A stretch of DNA of 64,000 bases, taken from NCBI RefSeq assembly GCF_016903815.1, contig NZ_CP069974.1, one strand, 5' to 3'. Position numbers: made by a program. Below, one piece after another: positions 1 to 3,000 of this stretch; the first letter of the stretch is position 1, and the number at the start of each line of letters is the position of its first letter. The stretch comes from Escherichia coli. Its GTDB lineage: Bacteria; Pseudomonadota; Gammaproteobacteria; Enterobacterales; Enterobacteriaceae.

Positions 1-3000
1 CACCTTCAGCCTCATGGTGATATGAAACCAGTCCAGCACATGCGTTGACTCAGGGTACATACCGAACTGGAGGTCCCTGAGATTATCCGCGCCGTCGGAC
101 AGAAAAAATATCTGCTGGTTGGCCTGCATTCCCTGCGCTGAAAGGTGGGTCATGAGCCTGCGTTCCGGATGACAGTCATCCTTCTGAACAAAACCGAAGC
201 GGCGGGTGTCAGCAGGCGCACCAACGGAAAAAGACTTCCCGGCAATAATTTCAAAATTACGCTTTTTGTCATCCCGATCGCGAACATAACCACCATCTAT
301 ACCCACCACAAGCGGTTTTCCTGGCCTGGGCAGGTTCCCCCAGTCGCGGGGGCAGCCGGAAAGAAAACCTGAATGAGCTTCAGCCTCAGCGTCAAGACGC
401 TGCGCCACCTGGCATAAATGATTCCTCACCGTTGAGGCATTCAGGCTGTGGCCCACCGGCAGAATATCTTTCAGCAGACGAGTCGTCATTTCATAGGAGA
501 TCATCGAGGCCCAGCGGGTTTCAATATATTTCAGTGCCGGGTGAGAATAATCGCCGGCCCAGTCGCTGAGCAAACTGACTGTCTTTGTATCACTCTCTTC
601 ACAACGGCACCGGTACACCCGAAGCCCGGATACCGGAATAACGCCAAACAGCGTCCGGTACCGTATTTTCTGTTTGCCTTTGATTCTGCGCGCAGCAAGG
701 CAGTGAGGGCACCGGATATGGTGTTGAGTATATTCGTCTGCCTGCAGCTGGACCACCGACTGCTGGACCGTATTCAGCAACAGCTTGGATTCTGACACCG
801 ATAATCCGATGTCGTTCCGGGTCTCCCCTGATTTCTGGATTGTCATCAGTTCCTCCGTTCGACTGGAGCCTGATTCATCGGTGATGACTATCTGGAGCGT
901 CAGTTGCATCATTGCCTCCTGCTGTGGTGGATGACTATCTCCCGGCTACTGGTTGTTCATCTGGTGACGAAGCTTATAATATGTGGAAACGCCAAGGCCC
1001 GCATGGTCGCAGGCGATCCTGAGCCTGACCCCTCTGCTTCTGAGTGCGTCAATTTCCTGGATCTTTTTGATATCGGCGCCGGGGCGCCCTGTTTTTTCAC
1101 CCCGTGCTTTTTTCGCGGCGATGCCGTCGGCCTGCCTTTCCTTCAGTAAGGCTCGTTCAAACTGGCTGAATGCCGACATCATGTGCAGCTGCAGTTCCTG
1201 CATCGGATTGTTTGTGCCGGCGCTGAACGTCAGCTGCTCTTTCAGAAAAATAAGGGTAACGCCCTGGTCACGAAGCCGGGTGGTGACAGCGCACATATCC
1301 GACATATTCCGGCAAAGGCGATCGATGGAATGAACCAGAAGCGTATCACCAGGGCGTAATTGCCCCAGGAGTTCCTGTAACCCCGGGCGGTTTGTGTCCT
1401 TCGCGCTGGCATGCTCAACACAAATTTTATCAGGCTGAAAACCCGCCTTTGACAATGCCTCTTCCTGACGGGCCGTATTCTGATCGGCCGAGCTTACCCT
1501 GATGTAGGCATATTGCACGCAAAACCTCCGGAAGGTCTTTAAACATCATAGAGATTTAAAGAATAATCCATAAACACTGATTTAGGGAGGTTTATAGACA
1601 TTTTTTCGGGGATCTGAGAGGCATGCTGAAAACGTATACCTTTATAGACATCAGTCAGCGACGACGGCCCAGCCAGATAACTTCAGGCTCCAGTACCGGA
1701 GATGCAAGGTCGAGCCTGCTCAGTTGCCGGTTGATTTTGTGGCGGTTGAACCTGACAGCATCCAGGTCGTCAGCAAAAGGGCGGATCTCGCCGACCGTTG
1801 TTTCATCATCCGCATTAACGATAGCTTCAAGAAACGCCAGGGTTTTATCGAACTCATCCGCAGCTGTGGCTCCGGGCATACCATGGCCGCTTATACAAAA
1901 CGGCGCTTTCAGCGTAGAGTTTTCATAAATGGCCTCAACACGAATGTCATGAAGCCAGTGCTCAAAGAAATTGTATTCATAGGTAAAGCGATCGCCAGCA
2001 TCAAAAGCAAAATCATCAATCACGACCCGGAACGGATTATCGACAAAACCGATGCCTCCTTCGTAGGAGATACCGTAATCTTTGCCATAAATGTGAAATT
2101 GATGGAGATGGTCGTCCCCCCAGCCCTGCACTATCTGGAAAATGAAGTGAAGCGCGGCCAGTGACGTGTCGGCAGCAATTCTCAGCCGACGCCAGACCAT
2201 CGGACTGACTCCATGAACTGCTATTTTGATGACGTAGATCTTCATAGTCAGCAGGTATTGTTATGAAATGATGGTGGTTATTTTAACCCCTGTAGATGGC
2301 ATCATTCGATGGCTGCCCCGAGGTTTTTCATGCTCTCCATCTTGTAACAATCAGGCATACCACGGAGCTTGTTTGCTTCAATCCGGGGTGACTCAAGTAC
2401 TTCAACCAGCTTCTTTTTCAACTGTTCACGTACCGTCGAGCCCAGCTTTCGCCATTCCTTTAGTGCCCGCTCGTCAAAATCCAGAAAATACGCCATCAGA
2501 GTTCATCCAGCGTCACACGTACTGGCTTAGGCTTACGAAGCCGTTCTTTCACTATCTCCACAAGTTCAGCATCTTCATCACTCAGGAGTGTCTGTTTGAA
2601 CGGCAAGCGTTCATTGTCAGCGATATACTCGAGCATGAGACGAAGCGCTTCAGAAGGAGTTACGCCCATTTTTTCAAGCGCGGCGTAAGAACGCGCTTTA
2701 AGTTCATCGTCAATACGCAGGTTAATGCTACCCATGTCTTACACCTCTTGTAATTACAAATGTCATTACAAGTATCGCACTACAACATGCTTAGGGCAAG
2801 TCACGAAGGAAGTCAGAAAGTAGTCGTAAGAACGGTGATCACTGTCCGCTTTGTGCCAATAGCGGACATTGCTGGCTCATGGTATGTTAGTTTAAGGAGG
2901 CAGGTTATGCCCTGTATTTCGCTGTGGTATAATAGTTGCGCAATTGATACAAGGGAGCGTTACATCGTGAAAATTGTTTTCGAGGTTAATGGAAAGAAAG

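Follow-up and report, generated by a model that had tools for sequence, protein, structure and literature searches.

The left edge of the window, a stretch of 64,000 nucleotides of Escherichia coli DNA (contig NZ_CP069974.1 of assembly GCF_016903815.1), almost certainly lies inside a copy of the insertion sequence ISKpn19, with positions 1-2337 constituting the right-hand 82% of that copy; how the element moves is a matter for the model presented below. ISKpn19 is already known: it has a name in ISfinder and in RefSeq, and a survey of Mutator-like transposases described it in 2014. By its sequence it is classed in the ISKra4 family, within the ISAzba1 group, whose p-MULT4 DDE transposases belong to the Mutator superfamily. 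Its genes run in the order PRiA4_ORF3, serine recombinase, DDE transposase, between imperfect inverted repeats of 26 nt.

Identity and extent of the element

Window positions 1-2337 agree at every base with full copies of ISKpn19 (2,851 bp), well within the isoform level for the element (nucleotide identity >95%), and many plasmid records contain the first 2,800 bases of the window at 100% identity. The identical part occurs in thousands of enterobacterial plasmids, where the RefSeq name of the transposase gene, 'ISKra4-like element ISKpn19 family transposase', stands beside 'recombinase' and 'plasmid pRiA4b ORF-3 family protein'. Copies of the element are near-clonal across hosts and differ by one mismatch at most over the 2,851 bp.

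Table S1 of Guerillot et al. 2014 (PMC3942029) describes ISKpn19, with the copy in K. pneumoniae plasmid pK245 (NC_010886) as reference, as a p-MULT_4 element of the ISAzba1 group, 2,851 bp in length, with an IR of 26 nt (22 matches), a Tnp of 463 aa and the extra ORFs 'pRiA4b_ORF-3, S Recomb'. The IR printed there agrees with the right repeat in the window, and the window sequence that ends at 2337, when reverse-complemented, gives the published start of the element, GAGAGCATGAAAAACCTCGGGGCAGCCATCGAATG.... No sequence difference separates the reference from the window; the 26-nt inverted repeat and the three genes are the same, the transposase being visible up to codon 303, where the window stops. 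Full copies that include the window sequence agree with the reference in length (2,851 bp) and in transposase size (463 aa).

Of the 2,851 bp, the right-hand 2,337 fall within the window. The other 514 bp, which include the left repeat and the codon for the catalytic E402, sit to the left of it, and the completeness of the window copy therefore rests on the identical plasmids, which have both repeats and are of full length. In one full-length copy (L001), the 26-nt repeats are 85% complementary and their arms are 2,799 nt apart, giving an element of 2,851 bp. The right repeat occurs once in the window, and the left repeat, searched for elsewhere in the window, is absent from it; the left end of the full element is expected to read GCTGCCCCAATATTTTTTATGCTCTC on the element's coding strand and GAGAGCATAAAAAATATTGGGGCAGC on the + strand of the window. 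Homology stops exactly at the tip of the repeat in six different flanking contexts.

A preliminary description of this DNA had suggested that the partial ORF, together with the resolvase beside it, might come from a less common type of element that continues beyond the window; both are indeed parts of a single ISKpn19 of 2,851 bp that extends 514 bp to the left. It had ended the module at 2245, short of the true right tip, and had left the pRiA4b-ORF3-like gene without a clear affiliation; this gene, too, belongs to ISKpn19. The description did not identify the element, which is very common and has been named and published.

Table 1. Features at the left end of the window
Feature	Position	Strand	Remarks
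ISKpn19 DDE transposase, N-terminal 303 of 463 codons	1..909	-	translation, NF033572, 100% identity to annotated copies
Small serine recombinase, resolvase/invertase type, 190 aa	946..1518	-	PF00239, 136 bits; internal gene of ISKpn19
Putative res-like recombination site	1534..1650	-	half-sites resembling TGTCTATAAA, in three inverted pairs
Putative site III, 31 bp	1534-1564	-	inverted half-site pair; closest to recombinase start
Putative site II, 36 bp	1565-1600	-	inverted half-site pair
Putative site I, 27 bp	1624-1650	-	palindrome centred on GTATAC
PRiA4_ORF3 / MM3350-like protein, 196 aa	1655..2245	-	PF07929; first gene of ISKpn19
IRR, terminal inverted repeat on PRiA4 side	2312..2337	.	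GCTGCCCCGAGGTTTTTCATGCTCTC; element ends at 2337
relE, first 53 codons	2338..2496	-	insertion target, not part of element; cut by ISKpn19 end
relB antitoxin gene, intact	2496..2735	-	flank; NF008412 131 bits, PF04221 111 bits

The three proteins

The transposase frame runs for 303 codons without a stop and is open at the left edge. The Cys/His-rich N-terminus and the GIDGGY block noted in the preliminary description are readily found: CPHC at residues 67-70 (a CxxC, with C67 and C70), CRC at 101-103 (a CxC, with C101 and C103) and GIDGGY at 203-208, which contains the catalytic D205. The catalytic D272 (in LSDGA) and then D293-x-x-H296 follow, and the predicted catalytic E402, outside the window, can be seen in L001. 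D205, D272, D293-x-x-H296 and E402 are all invariant in an alignment of five proteins of 42-94% identity. The partial protein scores 234 bits against the NCBIfam model NF033572, 'ISKra4 family transposase' (profile positions 15-297 of 422), whose curated cutoff is 205 bits, a cutoff that is passed despite the truncation of the protein by the window edge. The suggestion that the transposase stands outside the common IS26, IS1, IS3, IS21 and Tn3 types is borne out by this match, and an assignment of the ORF to a non-transposase family, named in advance as the result that would speak against it, did not occur. Pfam was silent, finding no family for the partial or the full-length protein even at E<=0.1, and a sequence search of the PDB with the transposase gave nothing meaningful. 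NCBIfam alone named the family; Pfam is without a model for it.

The product of the middle gene has what is expected of a small serine recombinase, that is, a catalytic domain with a nucleophilic serine, a C-terminal helix-turn-helix and a length of about 180-200 aa. The PF00239 match covers residues 3-141, the catalytic serine is S9 in IRVSS, and the helix-turn-helix region lies on the C-terminal side. Its sequence is nearer to the Gin invertase than to the resolvases of Tn3 or gamma-delta: the full-length matches to solved structures are to Gin (4m6f, E 2.7e-24) and to Tn3 resolvase (5cy1, E 1.8e-16), and in the alignment of residues 3-183 to Gin, IRVSS pairs with VRVST and DRLCR with DRLGR. 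PADLOC gave no match for the recombinase or for the PRiA4 protein.

The PRiA4 protein matches PF07929 over residues 2-168 with 111 bits (gathering cutoff 26.6 bits) and also matches PDB 2i1s, a 'hypothetical protein', with E 2.4e-12. The gene is retained in related elements, and the gene order is the same in three distant ones (L010, L011 and L012); its product probably has an accessory or regulatory function. A fragment 84% identical to the PRiA4 gene of ISKpn19 carries the RefSeq name 'IS1096 element passenger TnpR family protein', and PRiA4-type passengers have therefore been recognized in other insertion sequences. RefSeq uses this name, which refers to IS1096 of Mycobacterium smegmatis, for some PRiA4_ORF3 proteins.

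Insertion site and composite structure

On its right side, ISKpn19 interrupts a K-12-type relE at codon 53, as mapped from the junction, and the relE-relB flank is 99.5% identical to the relE-relB of E. coli K-12. A 64-aa ORF (2302-2496) runs from the relE remnant into the insertion sequence and has a weak match to RelE_StbE. On the left side, beyond the window, the closest plasmids have the rest of the insertion sequence, then a truncated tnpR, then qnrS1, and the window copy is therefore taken to be one arm of a Tn6396 derivative. The order in L001 and L006 is qnrS1, truncated tnpR, ISKpn19, truncated relE, relB.

Tn6396 itself is the composite transposon of p205880-qnrS (MF190368; PMC6735626), in which two inverted copies of ISKpn19 carry qnrS1. 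Its right-hand copy has the same inner flank as the window-identical plasmids, namely a truncated tnpR ending ...CATACGACC beside IRL, and then qnrS1. The outer flanks differ, relE for the window copy and umuC for Tn6396, and in the present sequence the second IS copy and qnrS1 are outside the window. No clean second IS copy was found in the Raoultella plasmid pJBIWA001_3. The reciprocal relE junction was sought in PLSDB, joined to the left repeat (under a model of 9-bp duplication) and to the right repeat (under a composite model with 7 bp), and no spanning record was found in either case, nor was a matching duplication at the other half of relE. Some 3 kb further right there is an IS26.

The practical value of all this is one of annotation: the left edge of the window lies inside a Tn6396-type module for qnrS1 quinolone resistance, which belongs to an enterobacterial multiresistance plasmid. 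The finding is real but ordinary, and carries little weight as a discovery.

Target duplications and activity

Tn6396 is flanked in umuC by a 7-bp duplication, CAAATTG, and two single-copy relatives of ISKpn19 (L010 and L011) are flanked by target duplications of 9 bp. Around six single copies of ISKpn19 itself no target duplication was found (0/6); these copies have mismatched flanks, which can be explained by the composite structure of Tn6396. At least six different ISKpn19 junctions exist, and most copies share the same qnrS1-linked flank. As judged by the footprint left in the sequence, the ends of ISKpn19 are competent for transposition. Table S1 of Guerillot et al. 2014 (PMC3942029) gives DR = 0 for ISKpn19 and no direct repeats for the group, whereas duplications of 7-9 bp are visible here. 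One paper cites plasmid cointegration mediated by ISKpn19; a second says of the same fusion that it 'may have been mediated' by ISKpn19, IS3000 and ISAba125. No experiment on replicative transposition or on resolution by ISKpn19 was found in the literature examined.

A putative resolution site and a model

Between the recombinase gene and PRiA4_ORF3 lies what appears to be a cluster of three res-like subsites (1534-1650), just upstream of the former gene. The gaps between the subsites are 23 and 0 bp. Of the 19 matches to TCYWTAAA in the window, five fall within 113 bp here, a count to be read with the knowledge that the motif was chosen after the region was inspected; the res-like motif was defined post hoc, with support from no more than two or three sequences. 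Across the intergenic region the aligned stretch shares 95% identity with a relative whose overall identity is 89%, and the changes that do occur with respect to that relative sit between the arms of the repeats. In another relative, whose transposase is 55% identical, the palindrome of site I is found again at the corresponding place. Two E. coli matches at 84-86% identity (H39 and H40) are fragments, uninformative on the intergenic region. Such a cluster would be in keeping with the Tn3-like resolution of cointegrates that has been proposed in the literature.

In the model preferred here the transposase, through D205, D272 and E402, would bind the inverted repeats and move the element; some transposition events, at least, may be replicative and give rise to cointegrates; and the serine recombinase would resolve these at the res-like region upstream of its own gene, as in Tn3-family transposons. 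A bolder version, which I put forward tentatively and with more doubt than confidence, is that ISKpn19 is a replicative element of the Mutator/IS256 superfamily with its own Tn3-style resolution, effected by the recombinase at 1534-1650, and that PRiA4_ORF3 is a required accessory, for example in synapsis or regulation. Cointegrate resolution as in Tn3 was proposed in the text of Guerillot 2014 (PMC3942029), so that idea is not new; what would be new is the specific site and the role for PRiA4. If the bolder version is true, it would supply the first function for the PF07929 family.

Alternative explanations

It might be thought that the three genes are merely independent neighbours, a lone transposase beside an unrelated plasmid resolvase and a PRiA4 gene, with no mobile unit to contain them. 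Small serine recombinases do often carry out plasmid multimer resolution on their own, and Pfam draws no link among the three proteins, but all three genes are enclosed within the 26-nt inverted repeats, in a block of 2,851 bp with exact boundaries in six unrelated flanks. The same gene order persists at only 42-55% transposase identity, twice with target duplications outside the three genes, and both extra ORFs are entered under ISKpn19 in the published table (PMC3942029). The analysis of boundaries refutes this view. A different doubt concerns activity rather than identity, and is compatible with the assignment to ISKpn19: the window copy may be an inactive relic, fixed within a resistance region bounded by IS26 and spread passively by the plasmid and by IS26. 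The near-clonality of copies across hosts, the qnrS1-linked flank that most of them share, the proximity of IS26 and the single copies without target duplication all speak for a relic. Against this, the three ORFs are intact in the part within the window, full copies have both repeats intact, and the junctions, different in at least six cases, together with the clean 7-bp duplication around Tn6396 in umuC show that transposition took place in the recent past. I consider an inert copy possible, though I would sooner doubt it than accept it.

The model of resolution is challenged more directly by the possibility that the recombinase is no cointegrate resolvase at all, and is instead an invertase, a plasmid multimer resolvase or an agent of flank exchange between IS copies, with transposition following a cut-and-paste or a copy-out route of the sort put forward for IS256-type relatives. 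The closer match to Gin invertases among solved structures points this way. So does the distribution of the gene: a serine recombinase is found in only 5 of the 12 PRiA4-bearing elements, and many elements of the ISAzba1 group are without a recombinase (PMC3942029), from which it follows that the recombinase is dispensable for transposition in the group. The mismatched flanks of single copies are what recombination between copies would give, although the composite structure of Tn6396 already accounts for them. It is harder to reconcile this possibility with the position of the sole cluster of paired half-sites, directly upstream of the recombinase gene and with a resolvase-like architecture (three subsites of 27, 36 and 31 bp, with gaps of 23 and 0 bp). 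Nor did a search within the element reveal another crossover site in inverted orientation. Furthermore, one relative has a fragment of a tyrosine recombinase in the same position, suggesting that what the position calls for is a generic role in resolution. A recombinase of some other function is on the whole rather unlikely.

Comparison with known systems

The nearest kin of ISKpn19 are other PRiA4-bearing elements of the ISAzba1 group (ISEc51, ISCot1, ISAfe13, ISBte1 and ISMal1; PMC3942029) and four elements found here (L009-L012). They share the gene order (PRiA4_ORF3, recombinase, transposase), have inverted repeats that end in ...GCTCTC or similar, and measure 2.1-2.9 kb. L009 is 89% identical to ISKpn19 in DNA, while L010-L012 have 42-55% transposase identity. 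The gene order is kept in Providencia (55% transposase identity), Pseudosulfitobacter (43%) and Mesorhizobium (42%). Some relatives are without the recombinase or have a tyrosine recombinase in its stead.

ISKpn19 resembles Tn3 and gamma-delta in having a gene for a small serine recombinase after a stretch of some 120 bp in which three putative subsites, each a pair of half-sites, are found. The half-site TGTCTATAAA resembles the TGTCY-type resolvase half-sites of those two transposons. The transposase of ISKpn19 is a Mutator/IS256-like DDE enzyme of 463 aa, unrelated to the Tn3 TnpA of roughly 1,000 aa, its repeats of 26 nt are unrelated to the 38-nt repeats of Tn3, and the target duplications are 7-9 bp rather than 5 bp. 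Membership in the Tn3 family was rejected on the grounds of the 463-aa transposase, which matches no Tn3-family profile (DUF4158, DDE_Tnp_Tn3), and of the 26-nt repeats.

Members of the IS256/Mutator superfamily typically duplicate 8-9 bp of their target. The transposase of ISKpn19, which has been classified as p-MULT4 (PMC3942029), shares with IS256 and the eukaryotic Mutator the D...D...E triad, the D-x-x-H after the second D, and the block E-S-x-N-x-x-x-x-(K/R)-R around the catalytic E. It differs from them in having no match to the Pfam model Transposase_mut at E<=0.1, and ISKpn19 differs also in possessing an extra N-terminal CxxC...CxC region in its transposase, along with its passenger genes.

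Identity and limits of the element

By its sequence, the element at the left end of the window is ISKpn19, already named and published. Megablast of window 1-2800 against PLSDB matched 2,817 plasmid records, and the best 25 of the 2,817 match the entire query at 100% identity, with the annotations 'ISKra4-like element ISKpn19 family transposase', 'recombinase family protein', 'plasmid pRiA4b ORF-3 family protein' and 'RelB'. Against the full copy on plasmid L001 (NZ_CP025845), in which a 26-nt inverted repeat, 85% complementary, encloses all three genes, the window part has zero mismatches. 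The arms of the repeat lie 2,799 nt apart, and the element is therefore 2,851 bp long. A search of the whole window found no left arm. Both repeat tips are exact alignment endpoints in several unrelated contexts within complete E. coli genomes, and six distinct pairs of ISKpn19 flanks could be read directly. It is because of the tips and these homology breakpoints that the copy is taken to begin 514 bp beyond the window's left edge and to end at position 2337. The right limit of 2245 in the preliminary description fell 92 bp short.

Features of the ISKpn19 copy in window coordinates
Feature	Position	Strand	Size	Basis or remark
Transposase fragment	1-909	-	303 sense codons	Translation; open at left edge
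Serine recombinase	946-1518	-	190 aa	Pfam Resolvase PF00239, 136 bits
Candidate site III	1534-1564		31 bp	Abuts site II (no gap); closest to recombinase gene
Candidate site II	1565-1600		36 bp	23 bp from site I
Candidate site I	1624-1650		27 bp	Palindrome AAAGGTATACGTTT at centre
PRiA4_ORF3 protein	1655-2245	-	196 aa	Pfam PF07929, 111 bits
Right arm of inverted repeat	2312-2337		26 nt	Single occurrence in window

The values derived here from sequence agree with those given independently in Table S1 of Guerillot et al. 2014 (PMC3942029): group ISAzba1, 2,851 bp, IR of 26 nt with 22 matches, DR 0, a transposase of 463 aa and extra ORFs 'pRiA4b_ORF-3, S Recomb'. That study places ISKpn19 in 'p-MULT 4' of the prokaryotic Mutator-like DDE transposases, which has three lineages, ISAzba1, ISMich2 and ISKra4. 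Within the ISAzba1 group, 12 elements that form one monophyletic set have a pRiA4_Orf3-like ORF in common. A serine recombinase is present as well in five of them, and the study suggests for it cointegrate resolution as in Tn3 (PMC3942029). What the present analysis adds is a corrected right boundary, relE as the target, the context of Tn6396, duplications of 7-9 bp and, as a hypothesis, a candidate res site.

ISKpn19 is extremely common in the collections searched, and 228 papers in the library consulted name it. Of 5,426 complete E. coli genomes, 560 have a locus that covers 80% or more of a 3.25-kb query extending across the element, and tblastn with the full transposase finds it at 99% identity or more in 1,832 PLSDB plasmid records. 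Two papers attribute plasmid cointegration to ISKpn19 by second-hand citation, one of them saying that it 'may have been mediated'. A one-nucleotide difference at ISKpn19 position 519 (L001 orientation; outside the window) between otherwise identical copies separates WP_001493761 from WP_014839878, and the latter variant is found in IncX3 OXA-181 plasmids.

The three genes

The ORF open at the left edge had been described as a partial gene of 303 codons with a Cys/His-rich N-terminus and a GIDGGY block, and this is confirmed: CPHC (residues 67-70), CRC (101-103) and GIDGGY (203-208) are all present on the minus strand. Its reading as an uncommon transposase, sharing with the resolvase one element that extends beyond the window, is supported by a match to NF033572 'ISKra4 family transposase' in NCBIfam (234 bits against a curated cutoff of 205, despite truncation) and by the 514 bp to the left. 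A Pfam search assigns the fragment to no family, non-transposase families included. At full length in L001 the transposase has 463 aa. D205, D272, D293-W-F-H296 and E402 are invariant in an alignment of five transposases; D205, D272 and the DxxH lie inside the window, and E402, outside it, falls within an FVESTxN block typical of IS256/Mutator transposases.

The solved structures closest to the recombinase are Gin invertases (E 2.7e-24), then Tn3 resolvase (E 1.8e-16), a ranking that counts against a strict resolvase label. The PRiA4 protein has a sole structure match, the uncharacterised 2i1s. Its start differs between RefSeq records, 181 aa in WP_001493763 and 196 aa in WP_012477564 (window 2200-2245). 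The ATG at 2245 is favoured because residue 2 of the 196-aa form is where the alignments to Pfam and to PDB 2i1s start.

Insertion into relE and probable descent from Tn6396

The sequence to the right of 2337 matches the relE-relB locus of E. coli K-12 (window 2338-2735, 99.5% identity), a piece of a K-12-type locus carried on plasmid-like DNA. The end of ISKpn19 cuts relE after codon 53 and leaves relB intact, an orphan antitoxin gene; a 64-aa ORF at 2302-2496 is an artefact of read-through between relE and the insertion sequence. PLSDB yielded no record in which the rest of relE adjoins either end of ISKpn19.

None of the six single ISKpn19 copies is surrounded by a target duplication, and the reason lies in the composite structure of Tn6396, which carries its repeats outside both copies. 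Tn6396 consists of two inverted ISKpn19 copies, transposase-side ends inward, that enclose qnrS1 and a truncated tnpR, and as a whole it is bracketed by 7-bp repeats (PMC6735626). This was confirmed in the sequence of NZ_MF190368, where CAAATTG precedes one outer right-arm tip and follows the other, within umuC. Plasmids L006 (identical to window 1-6047) and L001 (identical to 1-2800) continue leftward with the remainder of ISKpn19, then with the inner flank of Tn6396 (...CATACGACC, truncated tnpR), then with qnrS1. The window copy therefore most likely represents the right arm of a derivative of Tn6396, inserted into relE by its outer end.

Beyond relB, two adjacent ORFs on the same strand (2967-3929 and 3945-4946; 'hypothetical protein' in RefSeq) precede IS26. 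The first matches HEPN_RES_NTD1 below threshold (22 bits, cutoff 27) and carries R-x4-H (RNHLVH) close to the C-terminal end; the second matches GNAT acetyltransferases, also below threshold. PADLOC gave no match for the second and a marginal, sub-threshold PglX for the first (E 0.009). Together they may form a toxin-antitoxin or defence-like pair, as yet uncharacterised. The set of best-matching plasmids switches at about 5069-5221, positions of about 5285-5989 hold the transposase gene of an IS26 (transferred from the 100%-identical L006), and window 5221-25000 matches Shigella sonnei and E. coli plasmids with mph(A)-mrx(A), chrA and an IS91-family element. The switch and IS26 thus mark the segment from ISKpn19 to relB as a block bounded by IS26 within a mosaic resistance region.

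Relatives and target duplications

Distant relatives were sought among plasmids by tblastn of the full transposase, with identities taken from the five-protein alignment. The order PRiA4, recombinase, transposase is kept in Providencia (L010, 55% transposase identity) and Pseudosulfitobacter (L011, 43%); in Mesorhizobium (L012, 42%) a tyrosine-recombinase fragment replaces the serine recombinase. Exact 9-bp direct repeats, ACCACTTAG and CACACATGC, stand directly outside the GAGAGC-type tips of L010 (about 1637-4420) and L011 (about 1540-4420), and therefore elements of the ISKpn19 clade do make target duplications. There is a minor discrepancy between these 9-bp repeats around two single-copy relatives, with the 7-bp repeats of Tn6396 (locus L016, 6367-13737), and the DR of 0 in Table S1 for the ISAzba1-group elements compared. 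A closer relative, 89% identical to ISKpn19 (L009, NZ_CP035883, 261-4391), has its transposase split from the recombinase gene by an IS3-family insertion and is presumably inactivated.

A candidate res site

Sequence establishes that the ends and, in the window part, the ORFs are intact, that catalytic residues are present and that transposition has left footprints. The 26-nt repeats would be where the transposase acts. The recombinase would act within the 136 bp that separate the PRiA4 stop from the recombinase start, and these 136 bp contain three inverted pairs of a TGTCTATAAA-like half-site, whose arms were also picked up by inverted-repeat detection. Of the 19 matches to TCYWTAAA in the window, five lie here within 113 bp, and shuffles give about six per whole window, an enrichment that is biased because the motif was chosen after inspection of the region. 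In a relative 89% identical overall, identity is 95% along the aligned stretch that crosses the intergenic region, and the intergenic differences sit in the spacers that separate the arms. The palindrome at the centre of site I is found again in the relative with 55% transposase identity, where it lies at the stop codon of the PRiA4 gene.

I propose, as a hypothesis, that 1534-1650 is a res site. The res sites of Tn3 and gamma-delta have subsites of 28, 34 and 25 bp separated by gaps of 22 and 5 bp, and the layout of the candidate sites in ISKpn19 would resemble them.
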